Source: Anaerolineae bacterium (GTDB lineage Bacteria > Chloroflexota > Anaerolineae > B4-G1 > DUEL01). From it: a stretch of 55,011 bases of DNA. Under the pieces are notes generated by a model. It saw nothing but the letters and a program-made list of their open reading frames with translations. It had not been told where the DNA came from and searched no databases. Shown here piece after piece: positions 4,761 to 44,569 of this stretch. Position 1 is the stretch's first letter; each line of letters opens with the position of its first letter. Both the position numbers and the translations under genes were made by a program. The stretch is from assembly GCA_041082215.1 (NCBI GenBank), contig JBDOIF010000138.1, positions 1 to 55,011 of the forward strand, given 5' to 3'.

Positions 4761-4826
4761 CTGCCTCTCCCCCTTTCTTTGCCAAAAACATGTTACTCCG
4801 AGTGGCGATAGAAGGCAAATCAAGTC

Positions 4827-6429: not shown

Positions 6430-6562
6430 ATGCACTCCTTCTGGCCCTCACCCCACCCCCTGGCCCCTCCCCCTCAGACGGCAGATGAAGCCGGGTGGGG
6501 AAGAAAGCTCTTCCGACATATGGCACTCGTTCTTGCCCTCACCCCACCCCCTGGCCCCTCCC
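6392..6562. repeat. ~90-bp tandem duplication of the bglA 5' end/RBS plus a C-rich REP-like half-site
   Basis: 6392-6471 aligns with 6482-6562. The upstream copy encodes MSEELSSPPGFIC versus bglA MSKELSFPPGFIW. Confidence 0.85.
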
Positions 6563-6586
6563 GGAGGGATGAGGGCTGCCTGCAGG

Positions 6587-9031: not shown

Positions 9032-9067
9032 CTGTGCGCCGTTTCCTCAGGCCGTTCATTATTTGAC

Positions 9068-9093
9068 GTAGCGCAAGATTAATCTTGCGCTAC
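9068..9093. repeat. GTAG-family REP palindrome containing the GH130 stop codon
   Basis: Perfect 26-bp palindrome gtagcgcaagatt-aatcttgcgctac. Confidence 0.75.
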
Positions 9094-10070: not shown

Positions 10071-10103
10071 TACCGCCAGCTCTCCATAGAGGTGACGACC
10101 ACC

Positions 10104-11057: not shown

Positions 11058-11059
11058 GC

Positions 11060-12010: not shown

Positions 12011-12011
12011 C

Positions 12012-12878: not shown

Positions 12879-12881
12879 AGG

Positions 12882-13868: not shown

Positions 13869-13892
13869 CGGCAGCTCCTTTGCGGAACGATA

Positions 13893-13973
13893 CCACGGAG
13901 ACACGGAGGGCACGGGGAAACGCCGGGAACCCGGAGGGGTTGGCGAAGCTCCGCGACCTCCGTGCCTCCGTGG
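13893..13973. repeat. CACGGAG/CTCCGTG-type palindromic repeat
   Basis: ccacggagacacggagggcacgggg...ctccgcgacctccgtgcctccgtgg. A second copy lies at 54333-54404. Confidence 0.75.
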
Positions 13974-14011
13974 CGCGAACAGAGCAAACGACAGCGATGG
14001 TGCAGGATTGT

Positions 14012-14055
14012 TAAATTGAAAGGTCGCCCCTCCCTCGGAGGAAGGAGGGGCGACC
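14012..14055 (-). terminator. Stem-loop after the solute-binding protein gene (terminator or mRNA stabiliser)
   Basis: ggtcgcccctcc...ggaggggcgacc hairpin followed on the minus strand by tttcaattt. Confidence 0.7.
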
Positions 14056-14064
14056 CACAGGCGA

Positions 14065-15855: not shown

Positions 15856-16024
15856 CTTTCTCCTCCTAAAACACTGAGACACTGAAACACTGAGACACTT
15901 GTTAAGAGTTGACCTGTGGAACAGCGATCAGATTTAGACATCGTGCCCGTTTCACCTCCTTAAAACAAGTCGTGGTGGATGGGCTTTCTCGGCCCAATCG
16001 CTCTGGCAATCCTCCCGCTCTGTT

Positions 16025-16038
16025 TGGGAGCGCTCTCA
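16025..16038. promoter_or_regulatory. LacI-family (CelR-like) operator
   Basis: TGGGAGCGCTCTCA upstream of the SBP gene, identical to 17180-17193. Confidence 0.85.
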
Positions 16039-16094
16039 CAACTGCCCCCACAGCCTTTTCGGTTGGAACTTGGGACCTCCAGGGCGGACAGTTT

Positions 16095-17102
16095 CTACAG
16101 GGAGCCGCAGGACGCGCGCAGGATCAACTGGACGGGTAGAACTACGTGTTGAGGAGAGGTGATGGTCCCTTCCAAAAGGCCGATCAGCATTTCTACAGCC
16201 ATCACACCCAGACGGCCCACCGGCTGGCGGATAGTGGTCAGCGGGGGCTCTACCAGACTGGCCACAGAGAGGTCGTCAAAGCCGACAACAGCGATGTCGT
16301 CCGGGACGCGCAGGCCAGCCTCCCGGATGGCTTTCATCGCCCCCATAGCCATCATATCGCTGGCGACAAAGACAGCGGTCGGCCGGGCGGGCAACAGGCG
16401 TTCCATAGCGATCCGACCTCCCTCTTCGGAGAAATCCCCCTCCGCGATCAGCTCCGGACTGACCGGGATACCGTGGGCCTCCAGCGTCTGTCGGTATCCC
16501 TCCAGGCGGCTTTGCCCGGCGGTCATGTCCATCCGGCCGGTGATGGTGGCGATGCGCCGGTGGCCCAGCCGGATAAGGTGCTCCACGGCCATCCGCGCCC
16601 CACCGACGTTATCCACGTCCACATAATGAACCCGATGGTCGGGGTGCCTTCCGACAGAGACGAAGGGGATGCCATCGTGCAGGAGGCGGGGGATCAGGGG
16701 ATCGCTCGACGACGCCGAGGCGACGACCACGCCGTCCAGATACCCGTTGCCCAGGACACGGGCGTACATCTCATCCCGCGAGGCGGGGTCGTTGAAGAGG
16801 GAAAGCATCAGATGGTACTTGTGAGCATTGCAGGCCTCGGTAGCGCCGCGCAGCAGGAGGGGGAAAAAGGGGTCGGTAAAGAGCGTGGTGACCATTTCGG
16901 GAATGAGGACGCCCAGGATGTGGGTGCGGTTGGTGACCAGGCTGCGGGCGACGGCGTGAGGCTGATAGCCAGATTCGCGGACAGCCCGCCACACCCGTTC
17001 GCGGACCTCCGGGCGGACACTGGGGTGGTTGTTGACGACGCGGGAAACGGTCGAGCGGGAAACCCCGGCAATTCTGGCCACATCCTCCAGCGTAGGGGAC
17101 AC
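16095..17102 (-). CDS. LacI-family transcriptional regulator
   Basis: TLEDVARIAGVSRSTVSRVVN HTH, hinge ARSL, VVGFDD and PPLTTIRQP. GTG 17102 follows AGGAG. Confidence 0.95.
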   Translation of the reverse strand: MSPTLEDVARIAGVSRSTVSRVVNNHPSVRPEVRERVWRAVRESGYQPHAVARSLVTNRTHILGVLIPEMVTTLFTDPFFPLLLRGATEACNAHKYHLMLSLFNDPASRDEMYARVLGNGYLDGVVVASASSSDPLIPRLLHDGIPFVSVGRHPDHRVHYVDVDNVGGARMAVEHLIRLGHRRIATITGRMDMTAGQSRLEGYRQTLEAHGIPVSPELIAEGDFSEEGGRIAMERLLPARPTAVFVASDMMAMGAMKAIREAGLRVPDDIAVVGFDDLSVASLVEPPLTTIRQPVGRLGVMAVEMLIGLLEGTITSPQHVVLPVQLILRASCGSL

Positions 17103-17117
17103 GGCTCCGCTCCTGCT

Positions 17118-17193
17118 TGAGAGCGCTCTCGAAACGAACGCACAAAAAACTCCAATTCGCAAAGACAACGGCCGCTTTTTGGGAGCGCTCTCA
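17118..17193. promoter_or_regulatory. Two LacI-family operators in the regulator leader (autoregulation)
   Basis: TGAGAGCGCTCTCG at 17118-17131 and TGGGAGCGCTCTCA at 17180-17193. Confidence 0.85.
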
Positions 17194-17199
17194 AAAACT

Positions 17200-17227
17200 A
17201 TTATACCACGGAAATCGAATTTGTCAA
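17200..17227 (-). promoter_or_regulatory. Sigma70-type promoter of the lacI-ABC-GH operon
   Basis: Minus strand TTGACA-16 nt-TATAAT with extended TG, directly upstream of the operator. Confidence 0.85.
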
Positions 17228-17243
17228 TACCCAACCTGAGGTT

Positions 17244-17493: not shown

Positions 17494-17532
17494 TTGTACA
17501 GCCGTCTTTCTTATGGCATAATGTCTGCACAA
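17494..17532 (+). promoter_or_regulatory. Putative aor promoter with overlapping GntR/HutC-type site
   Basis: TTGTAC...TGGCATAAT followed by overlapping ATGTCTGCACAA, the same layout as 19612-19649. Confidence 0.55.
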
Positions 17533-17579
17533 GATATGTCGAGGAATGATATGGCCTTGCATACAGATGGAGGTGACCG

Positions 17580-19520
17580 TTGGCTTACGGTTTCTGGGGC
17601 AAAATACTCTGGGTCAACCTGAGCACCCGCGAGGTCCGCGAGGAAGCGCTCCCAGAGGCCGTTTACCGCCGTTTCCTGGGCGGGTATGGCCTGGGTATCT
17701 CTCTCCTCTATGAGCGGATGCCGGCTGGCGCCGATCCCCTCGGGCCGGAAAACATCCTGGCCTTCCTGCCGGGCCTGCTCACCGGAAGCGGCGCCCCTTT
17801 CAGCGGCCGCTTTATGGCGGTGGCCCGCTCGCCGCTTACTGGCGGCTGGGGCGAGGCCAACTGTGGAGGACGCTTCGGCCCGGCCCTCCGGGGGGCTGGC
17901 TACGACGGCCTCTTCGTCACCGGCGTATCCGACCGGCCGGTCTACCTCTACCTGAACGGCCAGCAGGCAGAGGTGCGGGAGGCCGGGGCCCTCTGGGGGC
18001 TGGACACGGTGCAGACCGAGGAGGCCATCCGGGAAGCCACTTCCCCCGAAGTGCAGGTGGCCTGTATCGGGCCGGCTGGCGAACGGATTTCCCTCATCTC
18101 CGGCGTCGTCAACGACGGCGGCCGCATCGCCGCCCGCTGCGGGCTGGGGGCGGTCATGGGGGCCAAGCGCCTCAAAGCGGTCGCTGTGCGGGGCAAGGAG
18201 CGTCCGCCCCTGGCCGACCCGGAGGCCTTTCGTGCCGCCGTGGCTGCCTACCGGCATCTCTTCCGCCGTCAACCCTCCCGCTGGGCCGCCCTGATCCCGG
18301 CCTTCCTCCTCCGGCTTCTTCCCCTGGCCCGCCGCCTGCGCACCCGGCTGAGCGGGGGACCGACCCAGTTTGTGATTGACTCCTTCCGACGTTACGGCAC
18401 CGCCGCCGGGACGGCCGCCCTCGTCGAACTGGGCGACACGCCGGTGCGAAACTGGCTGGGCATCGGCTTTCGCGACTTTCCCCTCCACCGCTCCGGCCAG
18501 TTGAGCGACGAGGCCGTTATCCGCCACAACATCCGGCCCTATGCATGCCACTCCTGCCCGGTGGCCTGCGGGGCCATCGTCCGCCTGCCCGACGGCGAAA
18601 GCGGCCACAAGCCCGAGTACGAGACGCTGGCTGCCTTCGGCCCGCTCCTCCTGAACGACGACCTGGAGGCAGTGATGCGCTGCGCCGAAATCTGCAACCG
18701 GGCCGGTCTGGATACCATCTCGACCGGCGTGGCCATCGCTTTCGCTCTGGAGGCAGCTGAGCGGGGCTGGCTTCCCCCAGAACTGGCCGGAGAACTCCCG
18801 CTGCGCTGGGGTGACGGCGCAGCCGTCGTCGAGCTGGTCCGACGAATAGGCCATCGCACCCCCGGCCTGGGGGAATGGCTGGCCGACGGCGTCCGTCGGG
18901 CGGCAGAACGTCTGGGGCCAGAAGCGCAGGAGGCAGCTATCCACGCCGGCGGGCAGGAACTCCCCATGCACCGGGGCCTCTACGAGCCGGGCGTGGCCCT
19001 GGGCTACGCACTGGACCCGGCACCGGGGCGACATACCTCCACCCAGTCCGGTACGGCCGAACTCCGGGCCTTCGCTCCTTACTTCGCCCTCTGCGGCCTT
19101 CAGCCGGCGGGCCGTTACGACTACGCGGCCAAAGGCCCCACTTTTGCCACCGTCATCCCCATCCTGCGGGCCTACGATTCCCTCGGCCTCTGCCAGTTCG
19201 CCCTCCAGATGGGGGAGCCCCCCTTTCTGGCCTGGCTCAACGCCGCCACCGGATGGGGGGTGGACGAAGCCGAGTTCCTGCGCATCGGCCGGCGGATTCA
19301 GGTACTCCGTCACGCCTTCAACGCCCGGGAGGGGCTGCCGCCGCGCTTCGACCTGCCCGCCCGCGAGCGCGGCGAACCGCCCCAGGAGGCCGGTCCGGTG
19401 GCCGGCGTGACCCTCGATATGGAGGCGATGGCCGCCGGCTACTTTGCCGCCCTCGGGGTGGACCCGGATACCGGCCGGCCCCTGCCGGAGACGGCAACAG
19501 AACTGGAACTGGAGGTGTGA
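17580..19520 (+). CDS. aor: Tungsten-type aldehyde:ferredoxin oxidoreductase family protein
   Basis: G..GKILWVNLS, FLGGYGLG, RSPLTGG.GEANCGG, CIGPAGE, GLGAVMGAKRLKA, CHSCPVAC, PEYET, GLDTIS and DSLGLC. TTG start after GGAGGTG. Confidence 0.92.
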   Translation: MAYGFWGKILWVNLSTREVREEALPEAVYRRFLGGYGLGISLLYERMPAGADPLGPENILAFLPGLLTGSGAPFSGRFMAVARSPLTGGWGEANCGGRFGPALRGAGYDGLFVTGVSDRPVYLYLNGQQAEVREAGALWGLDTVQTEEAIREATSPEVQVACIGPAGERISLISGVVNDGGRIAARCGLGAVMGAKRLKAVAVRGKERPPLADPEAFRAAVAAYRHLFRRQPSRWAALIPAFLLRLLPLARRLRTRLSGGPTQFVIDSFRRYGTAAGTAALVELGDTPVRNWLGIGFRDFPLHRSGQLSDEAVIRHNIRPYACHSCPVACGAIVRLPDGESGHKPEYETLAAFGPLLLNDDLEAVMRCAEICNRAGLDTISTGVAIAFALEAAERGWLPPELAGELPLRWGDGAAVVELVRRIGHRTPGLGEWLADGVRRAAERLGPEAQEAAIHAGGQELPMHRGLYEPGVALGYALDPAPGRHTSTQSGTAELRAFAPYFALCGLQPAGRYDYAAKGPTFATVIPILRAYDSLGLCQFALQMGEPPFLAWLNAATGWGVDEAEFLRIGRRIQVLRHAFNAREGLPPRFDLPARERGEPPQEAGPVAGVTLDMEAMAAGYFAALGVDPDTGRPLPETATELELEV

Positions 19521-19611
19521 GAGGCAGGGAGGGGTTGTCAAGGCCGGGTGTTATCTGCTTCCCTCCCCCCACCCCTGGCCCCGCGGCGGCGGAGGAGGGG
19601 TGAGCCCATGC

Positions 19612-19649
19612 TTGACAGTTTCTCTAATAATGGTATAATGTCTATACAT
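19612..19649 (+). promoter_or_regulatory. gntR operon promoter with overlapping palindromic operator
   Basis: TTGACA-16-TATAAT (extended TG), with ATGTCTATACAT at 19638-19649. Confidence 0.8.
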
Positions 19650-19662
19650 TTCGGAGGGCGGG

Positions 19663-20418
19663 ATGAACCTGAAGGTAGACCCCGAGAGCCCTCTCCCCAT
19701 CTACTATCAGATTCGTGAGCAGTTGCGCCAGCAGATTCTCAGCGGCCATCTGAAACCCGGCGATCCTCTCCCGTCGGAGGCACAGCTATGCACCCAGTGC
19801 GGCGTCTCCCGGATGACGGCCCGAATGGCCCTTTCCCAACTGGCCCTTGAGGGGCTGGTCGTCCGCCGCAAGGGGAAAGGCACGTTCGTAGCTTCCCCAA
19901 AAGCCACCCTGCCGAAAGATTTCATCCCGATGAGTTATACCACCCTGATAGACCACCTCGGTATGCGGGCTGGAGCGACGATTCGCAGTCAGGAACTCCT
20001 TCCTGCCCCGCCGCAGGTGGCAGAGGTCCTGCGGATTCCGGAGGGAGAGCCCGTTATCCGCATCGTCCGTCTCCGGCATGCCGATAACCAGCGGATGGCT
20101 CTGGAAACCTCTTTTCTCCCCTATCGCCTTTTCCCCACTCTCCTTGAACTGGACCTGAGCGATCGGAGTCTCTACAAAGTGATGGAGCAGACGTTTTCCC
20201 TGGCCCCGGACTGCGCTGAGGATACGATAGAACTTTCCACCGCTGGCCCCTACGAAGCGGCCGAACTGGGCATCCCGGAAGGCACTCCCATTGTGCTCAG
20301 TACCCGCATCGGGTACTCAGAACAGGGAGTCCCCCTGATTTTCACGCGCACGGTCCACCGGGGAGACCGTTTCCGGGCCACCGTGCGCTGCCAGCGTCCG
20401 CAACTGGAAGGCATGTAA
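19663..20418 (+). CDS. GntR-family (HutC subfamily, UTRA domain) regulator
   Basis: PIYYQI, LPSE..L....GVSRMTAR.AL and GKGTFV, with a UTRA C-terminus (SLY, HRGDRF). Confidence 0.93.
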   Translation: MNLKVDPESPLPIYYQIREQLRQQILSGHLKPGDPLPSEAQLCTQCGVSRMTARMALSQLALEGLVVRRKGKGTFVASPKATLPKDFIPMSYTTLIDHLGMRAGATIRSQELLPAPPQVAEVLRIPEGEPVIRIVRLRHADNQRMALETSFLPYRLFPTLLELDLSDRSLYKVMEQTFSLAPDCAEDTIELSTAGPYEAAELGIPEGTPIVLSTRIGYSEQGVPLIFTRTVHRGDRFRATVRCQRPQLEGM

Positions 20419-20433
20419 GAGAGGAGGAAACAG

Positions 20434-21813
20434 ATGTCCTTTTCGCTGGTCCGGTTGATTGAACAACGGCAGGGTGACCAGTATGACCTGCATTTGAAGT
20501 ATATCAACCCCTCTATGGTGCGCGTCCTCCAGATTATCGGCTTTGATCAACCCTACGTTCGCGGCGAGGGTGCGTACCTGTGGGATACGGAGGGCAACCG
20601 GTATCTGGACCTGCTCTCCGGCTACAGTGTCTTTAACCTGGGGCGCAATCACCCGGCCATCAAACAGGCGATGATGGAGTTCCTCGCCCTTGACCGGCCG
20701 TCCCTGGTCAAGATGGATTGCCCCCTTCTGGCGGGGCTCCTGGCCGAGGAACTGGCCAAGCGGATGCCCCCAGGTCTGGAGGCGGTCTTCTTCGGCAATT
20801 CCGGCGCCGACGCGGTGGACACCGCCATCAAGTTCGCCCGCTATGCGACAGGACGCCCGCGCGTGCTCTACCTCAATCATGCTTTCCACGGGTTGACCCT
20901 GGGCACCCTCTCCATCAACGGCGGGGAGGTCTTCAAGAAGGGGTTTGAGCCTCTGATCCCGAGCGCTGTGATGGTGGAGATGAACGACCTGGCCGCCCTG
21001 GAGCGGGAACTGCGGAAAAAGGACGTGGCGGCCTTCATCGTGGAGCCGATTCAGGGCAAGGGCGTCTATATCCCGAACGACGACTATCTGCCCGAAGCGC
21101 AGCGGCTGTGCCGCAAGTACGGTACGCTCTTCATTTGCGACGAGGTACAGGTGGGGCTGGGGCGGGCCGGAAAGCTCCTGTGTTGCGAATACTGGAACCT
21201 GGAGCCCGATATGGTGACCCTGGCCAAGTCGCTGGGCGGGGGATACGTTCCGGTCAGCGCGGTCCTCATGCGGCGGGACATCCACGACAAAGTCTTCGGC
21301 TCCCTCAAGCGGGCCCAGGTCCACTCCACCACCTTCGGCCAGAACGATATGGGGATGGCCGCCGGGCTGGCCACCCTGTACGTGATGGACCAGGAGAACA
21401 TTGTGGAGCGCTCAGCGACGGTGGGCGCGAAGCTGCTGGCCCGGCTGGCTGCGCTCAAAGATCGGTATGAAATGGTTGCCGATGTGAGGGGCAAAGGGCT
21501 CATCATCGGCATAGAATTCCGCCCCCCATCCAATCTGGCCCTCCGGGCCGCGTGGACAGCCCTGGAGGCCGCCGAGAAGGGGCTCTTCGCTCAACTGGTC
21601 GTGATGGCCCTGATGCGGGACCATCGGATACTGACTCAGGTGGGCGGTCCGGGGGTCAACATCATCAAACTGCTGCCGCCGCTCATCATCGGTGATGAAG
21701 AGGTGGAGGCCATCGTCTCCGCCTTTGAAGCGGTGATGGCCGAAACGACCCATGCCCGGGGGCGAGTGTGGAGCCTGAGCGCGGAACTGATCCGGCATGC
21801 TGTGGCCTCATAG
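20434..21813 (+). CDS. Class III PLP aminotransferase, HpnO-like
   Basis: GAYLWD.EGNRYLDLLSGYSVFNLGRNHP, EPIQGKG, DEVQVGLGR, AKSLGGG and VHSTTFG. The N-terminus H..YINP.MVRVL..IGFD resembles HpnO. Confidence 0.85.
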   Translation: MSFSLVRLIEQRQGDQYDLHLKYINPSMVRVLQIIGFDQPYVRGEGAYLWDTEGNRYLDLLSGYSVFNLGRNHPAIKQAMMEFLALDRPSLVKMDCPLLAGLLAEELAKRMPPGLEAVFFGNSGADAVDTAIKFARYATGRPRVLYLNHAFHGLTLGTLSINGGEVFKKGFEPLIPSAVMVEMNDLAALERELRKKDVAAFIVEPIQGKGVYIPNDDYLPEAQRLCRKYGTLFICDEVQVGLGRAGKLLCCEYWNLEPDMVTLAKSLGGGYVPVSAVLMRRDIHDKVFGSLKRAQVHSTTFGQNDMGMAAGLATLYVMDQENIVERSATVGAKLLARLAALKDRYEMVADVRGKGLIIGIEFRPPSNLALRAAWTALEAAEKGLFAQLVVMALMRDHRILTQVGGPGVNIIKLLPPLIIGDEEVEAIVSAFEAVMAETTHARGRVWSLSAELIRHAVAS

Positions 21814-22967
21814 AGGATGTGCGTGTCCTGGCCGGGGAAATCGGCCCACGCGGCACCGGCACGGCTGGCGAGACTGCGGCAGCCGATTATGTGGCCGGCC
21901 GGCTGGCCGGATTGGGGCTGCCGGTGGAGCGACACGAATTTCGGGCCGTTGCCAGCCAGAACGCCTTCCCGCTGGCTGCGGACATGGTAGCCCTGCTGGC
22001 TGTCGCCCTCTACCCGCTGGGCGGCGCGCCCACGCGCTGGATCGCGGCGGCGCTGGCCCTGGCCGCCCCCTCTCTTCTGTGGTGGGCGATCACCCGCTCC
22101 GATAGCCCGCTGCGTCCGCTCCTGCCCCAGGTCGTCAGCCGAAATGTAGTTGCACGCCTGAAGCCGACGGATATCCCGCATCGGCACGCCGTCATCCTGG
22201 CCCACCTGGACACCAACCGCTGCCGCCTGGCCTGGCAATCGGCAGCGGTGCACCTGCTGGAACCGCTGACCTGGCTCACCCTGACCGTGCTGGCCGCCCT
22301 GGGCCTGCTCTACTTATCCGGGGTGCTTTTGGACGGGCCGGCCTGGACCTGGTGGGTTTCCCTCCTTCCGGCCGGCTATGTCCTGGGGACGGTCGTCACA
22401 CTATGGCGGGATGAGCGCACCCTCTTCTCTCCCGGCGCCCACGACAACGCCAGCAGCGTGGCGGTAGCGCTGGAGATCGCGGCCCGGCTGTCCGTTCACC
22501 CTCTCCGGCATACCGAGGTCTGGCTGGCCTTTACCGGGGCAGAAGAAACGGACCATCAAGGACTGAAGACACTCCTTCGCCGATACACCACACCTCTCCG
22601 GGATGCCGCTTTCTTTGACCTGGAAGGGGTGGGCAGTGGGGACATCGTCTATCTCACCCGGCAGGGGCTGTGCTGGCCCTATCGGCCCGACCCGGAGCTG
22701 CTGTCGCTGGCCGAGTGTGTCGCCGCCCGGCGGCCCGATCTGGGCGTTGGCCCGGCGCAGATGACTGTGGAAGATGAGGTACGCACCCTTCGCAATCGGG
22801 GCTATCGCGCCCTCTGCATCGCCGGCCGCGACCCGATGACAGGCGCGCTGCCCCGATGGCATCGGCCCGATGACACGGCGGAGGCCGTCTCCCCCCAGGC
22901 CCTGGGGCGAGCAGCCGATTTCCTGATGGCCCTGTTATGTGAACTCGACAAAGGAGGAAATGGATGA
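21768..22967 (+). CDS. Membrane-embedded M28 metallopeptidase/amidase (start uncertain)
   Basis: Metal-ligand motifs AHLD, GAHDNAS, GAEE and WHRPDD, with about four hydrophobic helices. Confidence 0.85.
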   Translation: MEPERGTDPACCGLIEDVRVLAGEIGPRGTGTAGETAAADYVAGRLAGLGLPVERHEFRAVASQNAFPLAADMVALLAVALYPLGGAPTRWIAAALALAAPSLLWWAITRSDSPLRPLLPQVVSRNVVARLKPTDIPHRHAVILAHLDTNRCRLAWQSAAVHLLEPLTWLTLTVLAALGLLYLSGVLLDGPAWTWWVSLLPAGYVLGTVVTLWRDERTLFSPGAHDNASSVAVALEIAARLSVHPLRHTEVWLAFTGAEETDHQGLKTLLRRYTTPLRDAAFFDLEGVGSGDIVYLTRQGLCWPYRPDPELLSLAECVAARRPDLGVGPAQMTVEDEVRTLRNRGYRALCIAGRDPMTGALPRWHRPDDTAEAVSPQALGRAADFLMALLCELDKGGNG

Positions 22968-23953
22968 AAGCCTTTGTAACCGGAGGAACCGGCTTCATCG
23001 GCGGGGCGGTCGTCCGTAAGTTGCTGGAGGCTGGCCACACAGTGCGAGCCCTGGTCCGCCCCGGGGCCGACACCCGGCAACTGGACGGCCTGCCTGTGGA
23101 GCGGGTCGAGGGCAGCCTGGAGGATGTGGGGAGCCTCCGAAAAGGCATGGAGGGCTGCGATTGGGTCTTCCATCTGGCCGCGCTTTACGCCTTCTGGGGC
23201 TACCGCTGGGAGGATTTCTACCGTACCAACGTCGAGGGCACCCGCCGCGTCCTGAAGGTCGCCCGTGAACTGGATATCCCACGTATCGTCCACACCAGTT
23301 CCATCGCTACCCTGGGCATCCCCCGGGGAGACGTCCCGGCCAACGAGGACACCCCCGTCACCCTGGACGAAAAAATCGGCCACTACAAGCGGTCCAAGTT
23401 TCTGGCCGAGGAGGTGGCCCGTGACTTGGCCCGGCAGGGCGCTCCTGTCGTCATCGTCAATCCGGCCGCGCCAGTGGGTGTGGGCGATTACAAGCCCACG
23501 CCCACCGGACAGATGATTGTGGATTTCCTCAACGGTCGGATGTTCGGCTACGTGGATACCGGGATGAACATCGTGGATGTGGAGGATGTCGCCATCGGCC
23601 ACCTGCTGGCGGCGGAGCGGGGGCGGGTGGGCGAGCGGTACATTCTGGGCGGCGAAAACCTCCCCCTGAAGCAGGTCCTGGATATTCTGGCAGAGGTCTC
23701 TGGTCGCCCCCGGGTCCGTCTGCGCATCCCCCACAGCGTGGCCCTCGCCTGGTCGTATGTGGACGTCGCGATCGCCCGCCTGAATCCCCGGCATATCCCA
23801 GCCGCCACGCCGGAAAAGGTCCGCATCTCACGCCAGAAGGAGTATTACGATTCCAGCAAGGCGATGCGAGAACTCGGATACACTTACCGTCCGGCGCGGG
23901 AGGCGCTGCGCAAGGCGGTGGAATGGTATCGCGCCCACGGCTACGCGTCGTAG
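22964..23953 (+). CDS. Extended SDR, HpnA-like (hopanoid-associated sugar epimerase / dihydroflavonol reductase-like)
   Basis: VTGGTGFIG, HLAALY, YKRSK and KPTPTG.MIVDFLNGRM..YVDTG.N. ATGA coupling to the upstream gene. Confidence 0.88.
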   Translation: MKAFVTGGTGFIGGAVVRKLLEAGHTVRALVRPGADTRQLDGLPVERVEGSLEDVGSLRKGMEGCDWVFHLAALYAFWGYRWEDFYRTNVEGTRRVLKVARELDIPRIVHTSSIATLGIPRGDVPANEDTPVTLDEKIGHYKRSKFLAEEVARDLARQGAPVVIVNPAAPVGVGDYKPTPTGQMIVDFLNGRMFGYVDTGMNIVDVEDVAIGHLLAAERGRVGERYILGGENLPLKQVLDILAEVSGRPRVRLRIPHSVALAWSYVDVAIARLNPRHIPAATPEKVRISRQKEYYDSSKAMRELGYTYRPAREALRKAVEWYRAHGYAS

Positions 23954-23963
23954 GAGGAACAGG

Positions 23964-26900
23964 ATGGCCAGATACCTTTCAGGACTGGATGCTGGCTCCG
24001 GCTCTGTCCGGGCCCTGCTGGTGGATATGGAGAGCGGGCGGACGACCGTCGCCGTCCGCCGGTGGGAACACCCTCCTGCGGGCGACGGCGGCTGGGCGTA
24101 CGACTTTGACACCGAACGCAACTGGGCCCTGCTGGCGGAGGCGGTCCGGGAGGCGCTGGCCCGCGCTGGCGCCGCACCCGCCGAGGTCGCGGGCATCGCC
24201 GCCGCCTCCATGCGCCACAGCCTGGTCCTAGTCCGGGACGGACGGGTCCTCTTCGCCGTCCCCAACCGGGACGCCCGCGCGGCTGCCGAGGGAATGGAGA
24301 TGGCCGCCGGACCGGGCGCGCGGGTCTGCACCCGCACCGGCTGCTGGCCTGCGCCGATGTTGATGGCCCCCCGTCTGGTCTGGCTGGCCCGGAATCATCC
24401 CCGGTGGCTGGAGGGCGCGGCCGCGCTGACCGTGGGCGACTGGGTCGCCTATCGCCTCTGCGGAGAGATAGCAACGGACCTCTCCCACGCCGGGGAGACG
24501 ATGCTCTTTGACGTCGTCCGGCGGGAGTGGATGAGGGACTGGCTGGCGGAACTGGGGCTTCCGGCGTCGCTCTTTCCGCCCGTCCGCCTGGCGGGGACGC
24601 TCCTGGGCCGCCTGACGGCCTCCGCCGCCGCCGACCTGGGGCTGATGCCGGGGATTCCGGTGGCCGTCGGCGGGGCCGATACCCAGTGCGCGCTGCTGGC
24701 CCTGGGCGCGGTCAGCCCGGGCGACGTGGGCATCGCTGCCGGAACGACGGGGCCCGTCCAGGGGGTGGCCGACCGCCCCGTCTTGGACCCGGAGGGCCGG
24801 CTCTGGACCCGCCCCCACCTCCTGCCCGATCGCTGGGTCGTGGAGAGCAACGCCGGACCGCTGGGAGAGGCGCTGGACTGGCTGGCGGAGCTGCTCTTCC
24901 CGGAGTCGCCCCGGCCGGCGGCCCGGCTGATCGGAGAGGCGGCACAGGCCCGGCCCGGCGCCGGAGGCGTCCTCTCCACATTTGGCGGGCAGGTCTTCAA
25001 CGCCCGCGCGATGGCCTTCCCGGTGGGAAGCCTCACCCTCTCCCCCTTCCTGGGCGGCGACGGCCCCTCCCGCCGGGCAGACCTGGCCCGGGCCGTCCTG
25101 GAGGGGCTGGCCTTCGTCCTGCGGGCCAACGTGGAGCAGGTCGCGGCGCTGGTAGCGCAGGCTGTTAGCCTGCGCATGACCGGTGGCCTCACCCGTAGCC
25201 TCTTCTGGTCCCAACTGGTCGCCGACGTCCTGGGGCGGCCTGTGCGGGTCTCCGAAATCCCGGAGGGGACGGCCCTGGGCGCGGCGGTCTGCGCGGGGGT
25301 CGGCGCCGGGCTCTTCGCGGACCCGGCGGAGGGAGCGGCGCGTCTGGCGCACATCCGCACCGTCCACCCGAACGAAGAGAACGCCCGCACCTACGAGGCC
25401 CTCTACGCCGAATGGCGGGACCTGCGCGCGGCGCTGGCCGACGGCCACGACCGGGCCGCCGCGCGGATGATCGAATCCGCCGTAGGGCAGGCCGCCAGGC
25501 CTGTAAAGATTGCGTTCCGCCCCAAAATCCTGGTCACCGCCCAGATGGATGAAGAGAGCCTTGCCGAACTGCGCCGCCTGGGGGAGGTGGAGTACGCCAA
25601 CTACCGGGAGACGCTCCGGGTGCTCACCGGGGAGGACCTGGTGGAGGCGCTGCAGGGGGTCCACGTCTTCATCACCGAGGTGGACATCGTGGACCTGGAG
25701 GCGCTGCGGTCCCTGCCCGATCTGCGAGTCGTCGTCGCCTGCCGGGGGCAGGCGGTGAACGTGGACGTGGCGGCCTGCACCGCGCTGGGCATCCCCGTCC
25801 TCCACGCGCCGGGGCGCAACGCTGACGCTGTCGCCGACCTGACGGTGGCTTTTATGCTGGCGCTGGCCCGCAAACTCGTCCCCGCGGATGAGTTTCTCCG
25901 CCAGCCGGGCGGCGAGGCGGGGGACATGGGCCGGATGGGGCAGGCGTACGAGACCTTCCTGGGCCGGGAGCTCTGGGGGAAGACGGTGGGGCTGGTCGGG
26001 CTGGGCGCGGTCGGGCGGGAGGTCGCCCGGCGGTTGATTCCCTTCGGGGTCCGGCTCCTGGTCCACGACCCATACGTCCGCCCGGAGGAGGCCGCACGGT
26101 ACGACGCGGAACCCGCCTCCCTGGAGACGCTGCTTTCTGAAAGCGATTTCGTGAGTCTGCACGCGCCGGTCACCGACGAGACGCGGGGACTCATCGGGCG
26201 CGAGGCGCTGGCCCGGATGAAACGGGGGGCGTTTCTGGTCAACACGGCCCGCGCCGCGCTGGTGGACGAGGAGGCGCTGGCCGAAGCGCTGCGAAGCGGG
26301 CACCTGGCCGGAGCGGCGGTGGACGTCTTCTCCGTGGAGCCGCCTGCCCCGGATCACCCGCTCCTGCAACTCCCCAACGTCATCGCCACGCCGCACATCG
26401 GGGGAAACACGGAGGAGGTGGCCGCGCATCAGGGCCGCATCGTTGTGGAGGACCTGAAGCGGATGCTGGCCGGGGAGCGGCCGCGCCACATCCTTAATCC
26501 GCAGGTGCTGGAGGGCTTCTCCTGGACGGGGCCACGCCGGGGAGCGGATGAACGGATACTGGAGACGCTGGAAGGGCGGCCCGGCCCGGCGATTGTGGAC
26601 CTGCAGGTCGCAGGGCACCCCCACCCCCCAGCCCCCTCCCCCGTTTACGAGGGAGGGGGAGTAGGGGTGGGGGTCCCTGCTTCCCCGCTTCCAATGAAGC
26701 AGGTCGCAAGGAGAGAGGTCGCAATGAACACGGAACACGCAGTACGCAATACGGTTGAGGAACTCCTGCGCCGGTTCTGCGAGAAGGCCGTCGCCGACCC
26801 GGCGCTCGTGGCCTTTGCCGCGAAGCGACGGGTGACCACCCACTACACGATGACCGACCTGGGGCTGGAGTTTCATATCGGCTTTCGGGACGGGGAGGTA

Positions 26901-27824
26901 TTCGCCGGGCTGGGCGCGCCGCCTGCCCCGGCGGAAGTCCGCATGAAGGCGACGGCGGAGGTGCTGGACGGCATCCTGACGGGCCGCATCAGCGGGCAGA
27001 AGGCAGCGATGAGCGGCAAACTCTCCTTCAGCGGGGACGTCCGGACCGCGATGGGTGTCCAGCGGGTCCAGGGCGACCTGATCCGCCTCTACACGGCGGC
27101 ACGGGAGGAGGTGGGCGTAGGGCAGGCTGAGAGCCTGCCCTATACTCCGGTGGCCGCGCCGGCCCGCGCAGCGCAGGCTGACAGCCTGCGCCACATCCAG
27201 GAAGACCCGCGCGCGGAGATGGTCCGGGCGATCAACGAACTCTACCAGTTGGGGCTTATCACCGCTACCGGCGGGAATGTGAGCGTGCGGATAGAGGGCC
27301 TGGAGGAGTGCTGGATCACGCCCAGTCAACTCTATAAGGGCGACCTGCGGCCCGAACTGATGGTGCGGATAGACCTGACGGGAAACGTCCTGGACGAGGG
27401 GGTCCCGGCCCCCTCGTCGGAGTGGCCAATGCACACGGCGATTTACCGGGCCCGCCCGGATGTGCAGGCAATCGTTCATGCCCACGCGCCCTATGCAACG
27501 ATTCTGGCCCTGAGCGGGCTGCCGTTCCTGCCCGTCACCACCGAAGCGGCCTTCTTCCGGGAGGTGCCGGTCGTCCCGTTCATTATGCCGGGAACGAAGG
27601 AACTGGCGGAGGCGGTGGTGAAGGCGATGGGCCGGAATCCCGTCTGCCTGCTGCAGAACCACGGCGTGGTGGTGGCGGCGACAGGCCTGCGGCGGGCCTG
27701 CAACATCCTGGAGGTGGTGGAGCGGACGGCGCAACTGATCTGGGGCTGCTACGCTGTGGGAAAGAAGCCAGCCGCTCTGCCCAGGGAAGTGGTCCGGATG
27801 CTGGGGGAGATAGGGGTTTCGTAA
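23964..27824 (+). CDS. Four-domain fusion: FGGY (LsrK-like) kinase + D-2-hydroxyacid dehydrogenase + SCP2 + class II aldolase
   Basis: Kinase: LDAGSGSVRA, SMRH, DARA, GGADTQ, VLEG, GTALGAA. Dehydrogenase: GRNADAVA, GLGAVG, NTARA, VEP, TPHIGG. SCP2: AAMSGKLSFSGD. Aldolase: GGNVS, PSSEWPMH, HAH, NHG. Confidence 0.9.
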   Translation: MARYLSGLDAGSGSVRALLVDMESGRTTVAVRRWEHPPAGDGGWAYDFDTERNWALLAEAVREALARAGAAPAEVAGIAAASMRHSLVLVRDGRVLFAVPNRDARAAAEGMEMAAGPGARVCTRTGCWPAPMLMAPRLVWLARNHPRWLEGAAALTVGDWVAYRLCGEIATDLSHAGETMLFDVVRREWMRDWLAELGLPASLFPPVRLAGTLLGRLTASAAADLGLMPGIPVAVGGADTQCALLALGAVSPGDVGIAAGTTGPVQGVADRPVLDPEGRLWTRPHLLPDRWVVESNAGPLGEALDWLAELLFPESPRPAARLIGEAAQARPGAGGVLSTFGGQVFNARAMAFPVGSLTLSPFLGGDGPSRRADLARAVLEGLAFVLRANVEQVAALVAQAVSLRMTGGLTRSLFWSQLVADVLGRPVRVSEIPEGTALGAAVCAGVGAGLFADPAEGAARLAHIRTVHPNEENARTYEALYAEWRDLRAALADGHDRAAARMIESAVGQAARPVKIAFRPKILVTAQMDEESLAELRRLGEVEYANYRETLRVLTGEDLVEALQGVHVFITEVDIVDLEALRSLPDLRVVVACRGQAVNVDVAACTALGIPVLHAPGRNADAVADLTVAFMLALARKLVPADEFLRQPGGEAGDMGRMGQAYETFLGRELWGKTVGLVGLGAVGREVARRLIPFGVRLLVHDPYVRPEEAARYDAEPASLETLLSESDFVSLHAPVTDETRGLIGREALARMKRGAFLVNTARAALVDEEALAEALRSGHLAGAAVDVFSVEPPAPDHPLLQLPNVIATPHIGGNTEEVAAHQGRIVVEDLKRMLAGERPRHILNPQVLEGFSWTGPRRGADERILETLEGRPGPAIVDLQVAGHPHPPAPSPVYEGGGVGVGVPASPLPMKQVARREVAMNTEHAVRNTVEELLRRFCEKAVADPALVAFAAKRRVTTHYTMTDLGLEFHIGFRDGEVFAGLGAPPAPAEVRMKATAEVLDGILTGRISGQKAAMSGKLSFSGDVRTAMGVQRVQGDLIRLYTAAREEVGVGQAESLPYTPVAAPARAAQADSLRHIQEDPRAEMVRAINELYQLGLITATGGNVSVRIEGLEECWITPSQLYKGDLRPELMVRIDLTGNVLDEGVPAPSSEWPMHTAIYRARPDVQAIVHAHAPYATILALSGLPFLPVTTEAAFFREVPVVPFIMPGTKELAEAVVKAMGRNPVCLLQNHGVVVAATGLRRACNILEVVERTAQLIWGCYAVGKKPAALPREVVRMLGEIGVS
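26617..26674. repeat. C-rich/G-rich REP-like palindrome inside the fusion gene
   Basis: acccccacccc...ggggtggggg t. Related half-sites occur at 6445-6471, 6536-6562 and 19561-19600. Confidence 0.7.
27117..27194. repeat. Two GTAG-family REP hairpins in the SCP2-aldolase linker
   Basis: gtagggcaggctgagagcctgccctat and gcagcgcaggctgacagcctgcgccac. Confidence 0.8.
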
Positions 27825-27885
27825 CCGCCCATACAATTCCCCTCCGATTCGTCTTCCGCCCCGTCCTGTGCTAAAATGCTCCCCC

Positions 27886-29088
27886 ATGAACAACCAGGGG
27901 AAGGCTTATAGCTTCACCATCTCCGTCCACGGCCGGACGCTCACCCTCGTCGGACAGCCCGGGGTCTGGTCGTGGGACCGGCTCAACCCCGGCACGGCCG
28001 CCCTGCTGGAGGTGGCCGAGTTCGCTGAGACAGACCACGTGCTGGACCTGGGATGCGGGACCGGGGTGATGGGGGCTGTAGCAGCAATGGAGGCCCGTCG
28101 CGGCAGGGCGGTGCTGGTGGATTGCAATGTGGCCGCAGTGGCCTGCGCCCGCCAGACGCTGGCCGCCAACAACATCACCAACGCCGAAGTCCGCCTGGCC
28201 GACGGCTGCGCTGGCCTCGAGCCGGCCTCCTTCGACCGGGTCCTCTGCCACCTCCCCAGGGAACGGGCCGTGCAGGAGGAACTGCTCGCCGGCGCAGCAG
28301 CCGTCCTGCGGCCCGGCGGCACCCTCTACTTTGTCGCCCACCGACAGGCAGGGGTCCGCTCCGCCATCGCCGCCGCCCAGAAGCTCTTCGGCCACTGCGG
28401 CGTGGTCCGCCAGAAGAAGGGCTACCACGTCGCCCTGGCGGTCCGCTCCACGGGCCGCAGCTATGCCATCCCCCAGCCTGTATACCAGACCCACACGGTC
28501 CGGCTGGACGGGCTGGAGACGCCTGTGGTGGGCAAGCCGGGGGTCTTCGCCTGGGACCGGCTGGATGAGGGGACGTGGGCGCTGGTGGAGGCGATGAAAA
28601 TCGGCCCCGCCGACCGGGTGGTGGACCTGGGGTGCGGGACGGGGCTGGTGGGGGTGGCGGCGGCGCGACGGGCCGTCGGGGGATGGGTGACGCTGGTGGA
28701 TGTGGACCTGCGGGCGGTGGAGGCGGCACGGCGCACACTGACGGCCAACGGAATTGCCAATGCTGAGGTCCGCCTCTCCGATTGCGGAGCGGACCTGCCA
28801 GGCTATTCCCACGATGTCGTCGTCACCAACCCGCCCTTCCATCAGGATATAGGGACGGAGCCGGGCCTTGCCCGCCACTTCATCACCGCCGCCGCCCGGC
28901 TCCTGCGGCCAGGAGGACGCCTTTACCTGGTCGCCAACCGCTTCCTCCCCTACGGGCCCTGGTTGAAGGAAGCCTTCGGCCCGGTGCGGGTGGTCTGGGA
29001 GAACCGCCGGTTCCGCGTGTGGGAAGCTCTGAAAGGCCGAGCAGTGGATCACGAATCCCACCAATCAGGCAAATGGCGCGAATCGTGA
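27886..29088 (+). CDS. RsmC/RlmG-like two-domain class I SAM methyltransferase
   Basis: Duplicated PGV(W/F).WDRL..GT..L and DLGCGTG motifs, C-terminal NPPFH and LYLVANRFLPY. Confidence 0.85.
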   Translation: MNNQGKAYSFTISVHGRTLTLVGQPGVWSWDRLNPGTAALLEVAEFAETDHVLDLGCGTGVMGAVAAMEARRGRAVLVDCNVAAVACARQTLAANNITNAEVRLADGCAGLEPASFDRVLCHLPRERAVQEELLAGAAAVLRPGGTLYFVAHRQAGVRSAIAAAQKLFGHCGVVRQKKGYHVALAVRSTGRSYAIPQPVYQTHTVRLDGLETPVVGKPGVFAWDRLDEGTWALVEAMKIGPADRVVDLGCGTGLVGVAAARRAVGGWVTLVDVDLRAVEAARRTLTANGIANAEVRLSDCGADLPGYSHDVVVTNPPFHQDIGTEPGLARHFITAAARLLRPGGRLYLVANRFLPYGPWLKEAFGPVRVVWENRRFRVWEALKGRAVDHESHQSGKWRES

Positions 29089-29190: not shown

Positions 29191-30597
29191 ATGATGAGCG
29201 AACAAGCGGAGAAACTGCCCTTCTGGACCAAGGTCGCCTACGCCGTCGGCGAGGTCGGCTATGCCTCCGGACCGGGGACGATCATCCCCTTCTGGTACAC
29301 CATCTTCCTCACCGACATCGCCCGGCTCGACCTGCGGCTGGTGAGCCTCTTCTGGCTCGTCGCTACTATCTGGGATGCGCTGAACGACCCCCTCTTCGGC
29401 TTCCTCTCCGACCGGACCCGGACCCGTTGGGGGCGGCGGCGGCCCTACCTGCTCTTCGGCGCGGTCCCCTTCGGCACCGCTTTCGCCCTCCTCTGGCTGA
29501 TCCCCCCCTTCAAAAGCCAGGCGCTCCTCTTCGCCTACTACACCCTCGCCTACATCCTGTTCGAGGCCGCCTTCACCGCCGTGAGCTGCCCCTACCTGGC
29601 CCTCACACCGGAGCTGACGCTGGACCACGACGAACGGACCTCGCTGGTGACCTACCGTATGGCCTTCAACATCGGCGCCTCGCTGGCCGTGCCGCTCCTG
29701 CTGGGCCTGGTCATCTTCCCGGCGTTCCCCGAGCGGGACCCCCGCGCCTTCCTGATCGTCGGGTTGCTCTTCGGCGCGCTCTCCGTTCCTCCATTTCTGG
29801 CGGTCTTCTTCGGCACAAAGGAGCGGCCGGAGTTCCAGGTGGAAAGCCCGCCGCCGTTGTGGGAATCCTTCCGCTTCGTACTGCGCAACTACGCCTTCCG
29901 CTACACCCTCTCCATCCGCATCCTGAGCTGGATGCCGGTGGTCGTCGCCCAGGGAGTGTTCGCCTATTTCCTCATCTACTGGACCGGGATGACGGAGGAT
30001 GAGACCTCGCTGGTCCAGGGGACGATCATGCTGGTGGCCTTCCTCTGCCTGCCGCTGGTGCTCTGGCTCTCCCGTCGCTTTGAAAAGAAGACGGCCTACA
30101 TCATCGCCGCCTCTACCTGGGCGGCAGTGATGCTTTCCATCCTGCTTGTTCCCCAGCAGACCAAATGGCCAGCCTACGTGATCGCCGCGCTGGCCGGCTT
30201 CGGAGTCTCCGCCGCTCACCTGATGCCCAGGGCGATGGATCCGGACGTCCTGGAGGTGGACGAGCTGATGAGCGGGCTGCGGCAGGAGGGGGCCTACACC
30301 GGCGTGGCGGTCTTCGTGGATAAGCTGGCCCGTGCGGCAGTGCTGGCGCTTATGCCGGCCGTGCTCCGCTGGACCGGCTACGTCCAGCCGACAGCCGCCA
30401 ACCCGACCCCCATCCAGCCGATCTCGGCGCTGACCGGCCTGCGGCTGCTCATCTCCGTCCTCCCGGCCGTATTGCTGATCGTCTCGATCCTGGTGGCCTG
30501 GCGCTATCCCATCACCCGGAGCCGGTTCGCCAGGATACGGCGGGAGCTGGCGCGGCGGCGACGAGCAAGGGAAAGCGCTGCCACCGCTGGTCAGTGA
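29191..30597 (+). CDS. GPH-family (MelB-like) MFS symporter
   Basis: WDALNDPLFGFLSDRTRTRWGRRRPY, ERTSL..YR, G.RQEG.Y and WRYPITR. Confidence 0.92.
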   Translation: MMSEQAEKLPFWTKVAYAVGEVGYASGPGTIIPFWYTIFLTDIARLDLRLVSLFWLVATIWDALNDPLFGFLSDRTRTRWGRRRPYLLFGAVPFGTAFALLWLIPPFKSQALLFAYYTLAYILFEAAFTAVSCPYLALTPELTLDHDERTSLVTYRMAFNIGASLAVPLLLGLVIFPAFPERDPRAFLIVGLLFGALSVPPFLAVFFGTKERPEFQVESPPPLWESFRFVLRNYAFRYTLSIRILSWMPVVVAQGVFAYFLIYWTGMTEDETSLVQGTIMLVAFLCLPLVLWLSRRFEKKTAYIIAASTWAAVMLSILLVPQQTKWPAYVIAALAGFGVSAAHLMPRAMDPDVLEVDELMSGLRQEGAYTGVAVFVDKLARAAVLALMPAVLRWTGYVQPTAANPTPIQPISALTGLRLLISVLPAVLLIVSILVAWRYPITRSRFARIRRELARRRRARESAATAGQ

Positions 30598-33089: not shown

Positions 33090-33122
33090 CTGTCCTCCAT
33101 TCGCCTCCATCCACAAGCGGGT

Positions 33123-43321: not shown

Positions 43322-43322
43322 C

Positions 43323-44375: not shown

Positions 44376-44443
44376 CTTCCCTCCTCCTGCCTCTTGTTTC
44401 TTGCCTCTCGCTCGATTCGCCATTGTACTCTGCCTGGGACGGG

Positions 44444-44471: not shown

Positions 44472-44481
44472 ATGCTTGGAT

Positions 44482-44567: not shown

Positions 44568-44569
44568 GA

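Follow-up and report, generated by a model that had tools for sequence, protein, structure and literature searches.

What reaction sequence is carried out by a protein in which a sugar-type kinase, a dehydrogenase, a lipid-binding domain and an aldolase are joined end to end? The question is posed by 55,011 nucleotides from an Anaerolineae bacterium (contig JBDOIF010000138.1; this whole stretch is called the window below), where such a fusion protein is encoded by the last of six co-directional genes on the plus strand (17580-27824). We tentatively propose that the cluster dismantles, step by step, the polar end of a lipid-anchored (amino)polyol, with the C32-C35 end of bacteriohopanepolyols as the likeliest candidate. 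Cleavage of the hopanoid side chain, be it of scavenged or of self-made hopanoids, is the best single reading of the locus, and the initial annotation, which had put forward catabolism of such a side chain, is supported in part. The gene cluster that it described was recovered in full, and every domain call was upheld by Pfam:

17580-19520, plus strand: AOR, aldehyde:ferredoxin oxidoreductase of the tungsten type (AFOR_N 249 bits, AFOR_C 299 bits, Pfam)
19663-20418, plus strand: GntR regulator of the HutC/UTRA type (GntR and UTRA domains, Pfam)
20434-21813, plus strand: class-III aminotransferase of the HpnO type (Aminotran_3, 300 bits, Pfam)
21768-22967, plus strand: M28 metallohydrolase (Peptidase_M28 59.5 bits, cut-off 21.3, Pfam)
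22964-23953, plus strand: extended short-chain dehydrogenase/reductase (SDR) of the HpnA family, NAD(P)-dependent (TIGR03466 HpnA 430.7 bits, cut-off 367.65, NCBIfam)
23964-27824, plus strand: four-domain fusion, 1286 residues (FGGY_N/C 4-447, 2-Hacid_dh 522-845, SCP2 935-1035, Aldolase_II 1085-1258)

The intergenic distances along the cluster are 142, 15, -46, -4 and 10 bases, and with such short gaps everything from the regulator through the fusion resembles a single operon, AOR being located immediately upstream of it. The co-directional block begins at AOR, since the LacI and sugar ABC transporter and glycoside hydrolase (GH) genes upstream of it are on the opposite strand.

To assign the parts of the fusion, each domain was compared with Pfam, with the curated NCBIfam models and with solved structures:

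23964-25448, plus strand: domain 1, FGGY kinase, LsrK-like (FGGY_N/C, Pfam)
25506-26513, plus strand: domain 2, D-2-hydroxyacid dehydrogenase, phosphoglycerate-dehydrogenase-like (2-Hacid_dh 67.8 bits, 2-Hacid_dh_C 205.6 bits)
26688-27125, plus strand: domain 3, SCP2 fold of the lipid-binding type (SCP2 39.9 bits, cut-off 21.3, Pfam)
27186-27824, plus strand: domain 4, class II (Zn) aldolase of the FucA/5-deoxyribulose-1-phosphate aldolase type (Aldolase_II 176 bits)

The closest solved relative of the kinase domain is LsrK (5ya0, 260.6 bits), followed by glycerol kinase (138 bits), and the LsrK model NF008187 is also its best NCBIfam match (287.7 bits, below the cut-off of 528). The fusion kinase differs from LsrK in being joined to a dehydrogenase, an SCP2 domain and an aldolase. 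An AI-2 (Lsr) system was rejected, as the LsrK cut-off was missed and Pfam and NCBIfam found no other lsr-type domains in or beside the cluster. The dehydrogenase domain has D-3-phosphoglycerate dehydrogenase as its best solved relative (193.5 bits), ahead of glyoxylate/glycerate reductases, and scores 240 against the phosphoglycerate dehydrogenase equivalog cut-off of 454; its residues R763, E792 and H811, which we take to be the catalytic set of the 2-hydroxyacid dehydrogenase family, are invariant in 16 fusions.

The aldolase domain scored 107 bits against FucA, 44 against AraD (ribulose-5-phosphate epimerase) and 36 against MtnB. L-ribulose-5-phosphate 4-epimerase and MtnB were rejected as identities for it, their scores lying much below that of FucA. 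In an AlphaFold2 model of residues 851-1286 (pLDDT 85.2), the best Foldseek match of the aldolase was the 5-deoxyribose-disposal aldolase of B. thuringiensis with dihydroxyacetone phosphate (DHAP) (6btg/6btd, TMt 0.93), and FucA gave 0.89-0.90. S1151-S1152-E1153, H1172, H1174 and H1233 are invariant in the same number of fusions (16) and align to the FucA motifs; as in FucA, the Ser-Ser-Glu motif presumably binds phosphate and the three histidines presumably bind Zn. Curated cut-offs for FucA (115.5/264), ribulose-1-phosphate aldolase (107.4/300) and 3-oxo-tetronate-4-phosphate decarboxylase (106.2/250) were all missed.

Sequence matches of the SCP2 domain in the PDB were marginal (E 0.019 and worse), so a fold search was needed. 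The SCP2 part alone was modelled by AlphaFold2 with a pLDDT of 92.7 and a pTM of 0.85, and Foldseek returned 45 PDB matches at E <= 1e-3, after which came weaker Eis acetyltransferase rows. The PDB matches listed to E = 1.1e-3 were all SCP2 proteins or SCP2-like domains (alkylsulfatases, UbiJ, MFE-2), and these structural relatives include the C-terminal alkyl-binding domains of alkylsulfatases, UbiJ-SCP2, human MFE-2 SCP2L and bacterial and animal SCP2. Together with the passed Pfam cut-off, the predicted fold confirms that the SCP2 domain first called in the initial annotation is real. Known SCP2-fused enzymes (the SdsA1/Pisa1 alkylsulfatases, MFE-2 and UbiJ) share this fold and have catalytic partners that act on hydrophobic substrates, whereas the partner set found here, a sugar-type kinase, a dehydrogenase and an aldolase, is new.

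A genome scan for the fusion, with one genome per species, gave 80 loci (the L numbers below), to which all locus counts refer. In L031, a metagenome-assembled genome (MAG) labelled 'delta proteobacterium', the fusion is flanked on one side by shc (squalene-hopene cyclase, SHC), an HpnG-like gene and hpnB, and on the other by hpnA and hpnH; four products of this cluster (SHC, HpnB, HpnA and HpnH) score above the curated cut-offs, and HpnG just under. In L033 (Thermodesulfobacteriota) shc, an HpnG-like gene, hpnB, an unknown gene, a B12/radical-SAM gene and an S9 hydrolase gene precede the fusion. This link of the fusion to hopanoid clusters goes beyond what the initial annotation contained. 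Both loci belong to one four-locus clade and therefore count as one evolutionary observation.

The L031 hopanoid cluster also holds a 338-residue ORF (open reading frame) with FGGY_N only (7782-8798). It shares 79% identity with the N-terminus of the fusion, which lies 1.2 kb downstream of it, and is a relic or partial duplicate. All members of the hopanoid-linked clade (L023, L027, L031 and L033) have a conserved pair upstream of the fusion, c25 (290-300 residues, without a match in Pfam or NCBIfam) and an S9/alpha-beta hydrolase, and L023 and L027 have an MsbA-like ABC exporter as well.

The SDR and the aminotransferase had been labelled HpnA-like and HpnO-like from the start, and neither enzyme falls outside the group so named. 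The window SDR passes TIGR03466 with a score close to that of the HpnA in the L031 hopanoid cluster (446.4 bits), to which it is 48% identical; the SDR copies of L005, L019 and L022 pass as well (425-441 bits), and the Mycobacterium SDRs reach just 130-153 bits. A search of the SDR against a collection of plasmids and chromids (72,556 records) placed 28 of the 30 best matches on shc-bearing records; nine of these are annotated as hpnA and located a few kb from shc. The label HpnA-like is thereby justified.

No curated HpnO model exists, and the comparison was therefore made with the hpn cluster of Streptomyces fungicidicus (order hpnC-hpnD-hpnE, shc, hpnH, ispG, dxs, aminotransferase); the InterPro entry available is described as not specific for HpnO in the accessible part of a preprint (10.1101/2025.07.29.667474). 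The Streptomyces gene is taken to be HpnO on the grounds of synteny and of work to which the available sections of PMC12583986 refer. Over its full length the window aminotransferase is 52% identical (457 bits) to the enzyme of this cluster, and both share an unusual NCBIfam fingerprint in which the PigE aminotransferase domain is best, far above ArgD-type models. Its best three of 141 matches in the plasmid collection were on three shc-bearing Streptomyces records (51.7-53.1% identity; the fourth match had 40.8%), with the matched gene 2-7 kb downstream of shc in each, which upholds the HpnO-like label. ArgD (283 against a cut-off of 410) and OAT (263 against 378) were rejected as identities for the window enzyme.

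By identity, fingerprint and TIGR03466, then, the window aminotransferase and SDR resemble HpnO and HpnA of hpn clusters, but they differ in their company, which consists of GntR, AOR, M28 and the fusion. The initial annotation had noted that squalene-hopene cyclase, hpnH and hpnG are missing from the window, and we agree: none was found in the 55 kb by Pfam on 41 ORFs or by tblastn, for which SHC, HpnG and HpnH of L031 and of the Streptomyces cluster served as queries. A stretch of this length tells little about the genome in this respect.

The M28 metallohydrolase, whose true start may be at 21768 or 21819, has hydrophobic 19-residue windows at 66-84, 91-109 and 163-192. Across eight homologues H146, D148, D226, E259, E260 and H365 are invariant, and these we take to be the metal ligands, as in the Aeromonas aminopeptidase. 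The hydrophobic windows are inserted between the conserved metal-ligand motifs, and the description 'membrane M28' given in the initial annotation thus holds, with the Pfam cut-off passed and the hydrophobic segments within the catalytic domain. We propose that M28 may act as an N-deacylase of a membrane lipid. Relatives stand beside the fusion in L005, L006 (directly after it), L011, L019, L022, L039 and L051. The family is mostly from Chloroflexota, the ESM Atlas gave only Chloroflexota clusters, and tblastn against the plasmid collection gave one weak match. In L005 an alpha/beta hydrolase gene lies between M28 and SDR. In L039 and L051 (Actinomycetota MAGs) the M28 relative is near a two-domain kinase-dehydrogenase gene; these loci also hold a YihY/BrkB membrane protein, a geranylgeranyl-reductase-family flavoprotein and a B12/radical-SAM protein whose nearest model is TIGR04072 'lipid biosynthesis' (302-313 bits against a cut-off of 360).

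The closest solved structure to the window AOR is P. furiosus AOR (1aor, 335 bits), with FOR at 235 bits. AOR adjoins the fusion in seven Chloroflexota loci (L007, L008, L009, L011, L012, L019 and L022), and in L016 a partial AOR copy stands where the contig ends. In all four Mycobacterium loci an Aldedh-like gene (573 residues) directly follows the fusion. An aldehyde oxidiser thus stands beside the fusion in two unrelated lineages, which fits an aldehyde product. The GntR regulator scores under every curated NCBIfam cut-off, and a homologue is found beside the fusion in eight loci (L005, L007, L009, L011, L012, L016, L019 and L022). L019 and L022 have a different MFS transporter (cluster c47) placed between AOR and the aminotransferase; in L007 it comes after AOR.

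The following scheme is our reading of the gene content, family membership, orthology, motifs, SCP2 fold and placement of the fusion in L031 and L033; its substrates, the order of its steps and their direction are inferred. Taken from N- to C-terminus, the fusion would first use its LsrK-like kinase to phosphorylate the terminal primary hydroxyl; its phosphoglycerate-dehydrogenase-like domain would then oxidise the secondary alcohol adjoining the CH2-O-phosphate, to give a ketose-1-phosphate-type head. The FucA/5-deoxyribulose-1-phosphate-type aldolase would cleave this head to DHAP and a lipid aldehyde, with SCP2 holding the hydrophobic body, and AOR would convert the aldehyde to the acid, a C32 hopanoic acid if it comes from bacteriohopanetetrol. 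Three feeder steps would be accessory and confined to some lineages: the membrane M28 may free an N-substituted amine, the HpnO-type aminotransferase may turn the terminal amine into an aldehyde, and the HpnA-type SDR may reduce this aldehyde to the alcohol. The GntR regulator would control the unit.

The scheme of the initial annotation is coherent in its chemistry. The reaction order originally suggested for the fusion fits the nearest solved relatives of each of its domains, as far as families can indicate, and all seven catalytic units would find a role on a 1-amino-2,3,4-triol lipid. HpnA membership, best-match orthology to HpnO and the occurrence of the fusion inside hpn clusters are three independent tests that back the scheme. 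It is possible, though doubtful, that the fusion is the first known enzyme to cut the bacteriohopanepolyol side chain, giving DHAP and a C32 aldehyde that AOR turns into the C32 acid, with HpnO and HpnA reversed and the M28 deacylase feeding in amino- and N-acyl-hopanoids. HpnO is known as a biosynthetic aminating enzyme; for the window aminotransferase the reverse direction is proposed. In open-access text we found no enzyme that degrades or shortens the polar side chain of hopanoids, and no paper on this system in connection with hopanoids in Anaerolineae or Mycobacterium kansasii.

The product logic of the scheme, DHAP plus an aldehyde, is that of 5-deoxyribose disposal (the DHAP shunt, DrdK-DrdI-DrdA) and of the L-fuculose pathway (FucK-FucA), and the hopanoid side chain is a 5-substituted ribose derivative by the pathway described in PMC12583986. 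The fusion would differ from both pathways in reaching the ketose-1-phosphate through a kinase and a dehydrogenase acting on a polyol, not through a kinase and an isomerase acting on an aldose, and its domains are joined in one protein with SCP2.

Searched as a protein, the fusion gave 342 matches at E <= 1e-3; among the 120 matches listed, nearly all have the same domain set, and two are without one domain in the precomputed Pfam column. Its relatives in Thermoflexales/Anaerolineae are 60-87% identical and those in Mycobacterium kansasii and M. persicum 53-54%. The 80 loci span Chloroflexota, four Mycobacterium species, Myxococcota and other 'delta' lineages, Thermodesulfobacteriota, Spirochaetota and Actinomycetota, together with one Margulisiibacteriota MAG and one Gammaproteobacteria MAG. 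Judged by its sequences, the fusion is a large, widespread and so far uncharacterised family; no paper on a kinase-dehydrogenase-SCP2-aldolase architecture was found in open-access text.

Two forms of the fusion gene were told apart by domain hidden Markov models built from the alignment. The four-domain form occurs in 50 loci and has kept SCP2 in every one of them; 29 loci have the kinase and dehydrogenase only, 13 of them with the aldolase encoded by its own gene immediately downstream and without SCP2. A tree built on the kinase-dehydrogenase part groups 25 of these 29 genes in one fully supported clade, which is without SCP2. The other four fall among four-domain genes; at least L009 is cut by a contig end, and the remaining ones may be broken or miscalled. 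Variants of ~1475 residues (P0046, P0090 and P0115) have two tandem SCP2 domains between the dehydrogenase and the aldolase. The long N-terminal extensions in L042 and L054 contain no Pfam domain and are possibly ORF-calling artefacts.

AMP-binding ligases were found near the fusion in 13 loci, and other lipid-type neighbours include P450, acyl-CoA dehydrogenase, 3-hydroxyacyl-CoA dehydrogenase, PlsC-type acyltransferases and WS/DGAT; TetR regulators occur too. In the Mycobacterium kansasii group (L015, L020, L021 and L024) the fusion is accompanied by a FadD-type ligase, two HpnA-distant SDRs, an acyltransferase and WS/DGAT, which looks like a lipid gene set. Pfam at E <= 0.01 gave almost nothing for the neighbours left without a name (c25, the 301-, 373- and 156-residue ORFs of L031, c44 of Mycobacterium and others).

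Kinase, dehydrogenase and aldolase genes in the same order, unfused, ~33% identical and without SCP2, were found in the plasmid collection:

Sinorhizobium meliloti: trio in the erythritol/adonitol/L-arabitol region, with a sugar ABC transporter and SorC/DeoR regulators
Paracoccus seriniphilus: trio beside sulfatases and an ABC transporter
Streptomyces atratus: trio with a sugar-binding regulator and MFS
Enterococcus raffinosus: trio

The S. meliloti genes align over 66% of the fusion and probably are lalA-rbtB-rbtC, a mapping made from position alone; this suboperon of the Sinorhizobium locus is needed for pentitol use according to the accessible part of PMC3599248. The Sinorhizobium trio has the same three families in the same order as the fusion but consists of separate genes, with no SCP2 and no HpnA, HpnO, M28 or AOR. 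As a catalytic set, the trio is thus nothing out of the ordinary for polyol cleavage; the SCP2 insert and the gene company are the special part.

Besides this kinship with unfused polyol genes, several observations weigh against cleavage of a hopanoid side chain. HutC-type GntR regulators and GPH/MFS transporters, both found at the locus, are usual for soluble substrates. No domain of the fusion reached a curated NCBIfam equivalog cut-off, and none can therefore be filed as a named enzyme. The cluster is conserved in few loci of the scan: the full aminotransferase-M28-SDR set is beside the fusion in only 4 of the 80 loci (L005, L011, L019 and L022, in two gene orders), less often than AOR or GntR, and the closest relatives, L001-L004 (79-85% identity), are without the cluster genes at the thresholds used. 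Remnants survive in some loci. In L007 (9105-9984) the first 96 residues of the aminotransferase abut the last 202 of the SDR, in L009 (3779-3856) a 26-residue SDR tail remains, and in L001 (9900-10028) a 45-residue GntR remnant lies just before the fusion, indicating that the fusion persisted through several losses of the feeder genes. Within 10 kb of the fusion, shc or hpnH was found at no locus beyond L031 and L033 (2 of 80 loci, one clade). Anaerolineae hold at least 120 clusters of the aminotransferase family at 76-95% identity, and a family so common and so conserved there may point to a more general amine substrate. The fusion also occurs in Mycobacterium and in Spirochaetota, and in the latter SHC is lacking or exceedingly scarce according to the portion of the preprint available (10.1101/2025.07.29.667474). 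HpnA itself is without an established function in the sections of PMC12583986 at hand.

One rival reading is catabolism of a soluble (amino)polyol or sugar alcohol, in which MFS/GPH uptake would be followed by the kinase, the dehydrogenase and cleavage, with SCP2 in a structural or regulatory role; a free pentitol, tetritol, hexitol or 1-amino-1-deoxy-alditol would give DHAP and glycolaldehyde or glyceraldehyde, to be oxidised by AOR. The unfused trios in sugar/polyol loci of Sinorhizobium, Paracoccus, Streptomyces and Enterococcus, the 25-locus two-domain clade without SCP2, the 13 loci with a separate aldolase, the HutC-type regulator and the GPH and MFS genes downstream all agree with such a pathway, and the Sinorhizobium region is catabolic for pentitols (PMC3599248, in the part available). 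We nevertheless consider it unlikely, since SCP2 is present in all 50 four-domain loci and duplicated in some proteins, and its structural relatives all bind lipids; the SDR and the aminotransferase are best-match orthologues of hopanoid-cluster genes, M28 is membrane-embedded, the fusion lies inside the hpn clusters of L031 and L033, and its neighbours in other phyla are of lipid type. The embedding in biosynthetic hpn clusters would also suit a producer that tailors or turns over its own hopanoids and does not feed on foreign lipid, either by cleavage to C32 hopanoids or by epimerisation or reduction from ribosylhopane towards the tetrol and amino forms. HpnA and HpnO orthologues are producer genes; the accessible text of PMC12583986 reports that genomes of Alphaproteobacteria without hpnH are also without hpnA, and that neither the enzyme converting ribosylhopane to bacteriohopanetetrol nor the function of HpnA is established. 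SHC occurs at low levels in Chloroflexota by the account in the same part of the preprint (10.1101/2025.07.29.667474). We regard such tailoring or turnover as unlikely: shc, hpnH and hpnG are all missing from the 55-kb window, a catabolic operon is the better fit for a GntR repressor and an AOR so tightly linked, the feeder genes were lost repeatedly, and the fusion is present in Spirochaetota, for which the preprint text cited above (10.1101/2025.07.29.667474) gives SHC as absent or very rare.

Other lipid substrates have been considered as well, such as phytosphingosine-type sphingoid bases or long-chain tetrols, which would yield DHAP and a fatty aldehyde. SCP2 domains bind fatty acyl and alkyl ligands besides sterols, AMP-binding ligases, beta-oxidation genes and WS/DGAT are among the neighbours, the Mycobacterium loci pair the fusion with fatty-acid-type genes, and Anaerolineae of the Black Sea correlate with ceramides and are proposed sphingolipid producers in the available portion of PMC11334938. 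Such a substrate has little probability in our view, because the SDR and the aminotransferase are specifically nearest to hpn-cluster genes and no sphingolipid gene was seen among the ORFs of the window or the neighbours at the scanned loci; moreover, a 2-amino-1,3,4-triol would be expected to need neither the dehydrogenase domain nor the SDR. Very little credence is given to an anabolic direction, in which the kinase and dehydrogenase would make DHAP from glycerol and the aldolase would join it to an SCP2-held lipid aldehyde supplied by AOR or an acyl reductase, the resulting polyol-headed lipid then being aminated and modified. Glycerol kinases are indeed the second-best solved relatives of the kinase domain, the dehydrogenase resembles enzymes acting beside a CH2-O-phosphate, AORs are able to reduce acids, and the gene content of the Mycobacterium loci hints at biosynthesis (FadD-type ligase, acyltransferase, WS/DGAT). 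The kinase, however, is far nearer to LsrK (260.6 bits) than to glycerol kinase (138 bits), the Sinorhizobium homologues are catabolic and a GntR/HutC regulator is present; to our knowledge, no polyol-headed lipid of this kind has been described.

In sediments hopanoids rank among the most abundant lipids, and their shortened forms are interpreted as molecular fossils. If side-chain cleavage by the fusion is the correct reading, enzymes of anaerobes such as Anaerolineae, not abiotic diagenesis, would account for a large share of the C32 hopanoic acids and shortened hopanoids found there, and geochemists would gain, in a defined and widespread gene for the step, a marker of biological hopanoid alteration. 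Anaerobes would then harvest carbon and nitrogen from membrane lipids whose rings may be beyond their reach, and a role could be assigned to HpnA. Whatever the substrate, another lipid polyol or a free polyol, the fusion would represent a large family with a clear reaction scheme, reaching from Chloroflexota to the Mycobacterium kansasii group.

Directly after the fusion, three further genes, possibly members of the unit, continue on the same strand with gaps of 43, 102 and 36 bases:

27868-29088, plus strand: tandem MTS methyltransferase (406 residues, two MTS domains, RsmC-like below cut-off)
29191-30597, plus strand: GPH/MFS_2 symporter (Pfam, NCBIfam)
30634-31839, plus strand: MFS_1 transporter (Pfam, NCBIfam)

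None of the three recurred beside the fusion among the 80 loci at the thresholds used. Another small methyltransferase (c21) follows the fusion on the opposite strand in L001, L002, L005 and L079. On the other side of the cluster lies an oligosaccharide locus:

5080-17234, minus strand: LacI (16095-17234), SBP_bac_5, two Opp-type permeases, ATPase, GH130, GH94 and GH1

GH94 of this locus is of the cellobiose/cellodextrin phosphorylase type, and GH130 is a phosphorylase. In the 65% GC window, long shadow ORFs stand opposite real genes. A plus-strand ORF over the SBP gene (14251-15846, 531 residues) is without a Pfam hit, and the minus-strand ORF that overlaps AOR (17511-19541, 676 residues) is a shadow frame, as the AOR domains sit in the plus frame. 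Elsewhere on the minus strand are two Ser/Thr kinases (1270-4823), one with an FHA domain and the other with a 3-keto-disaccharide-hydrolase-like domain, a PETase/dienelactone-hydrolase-like gene next to PlsY (31806-33860), and FabF with PlsX (42083-44606).

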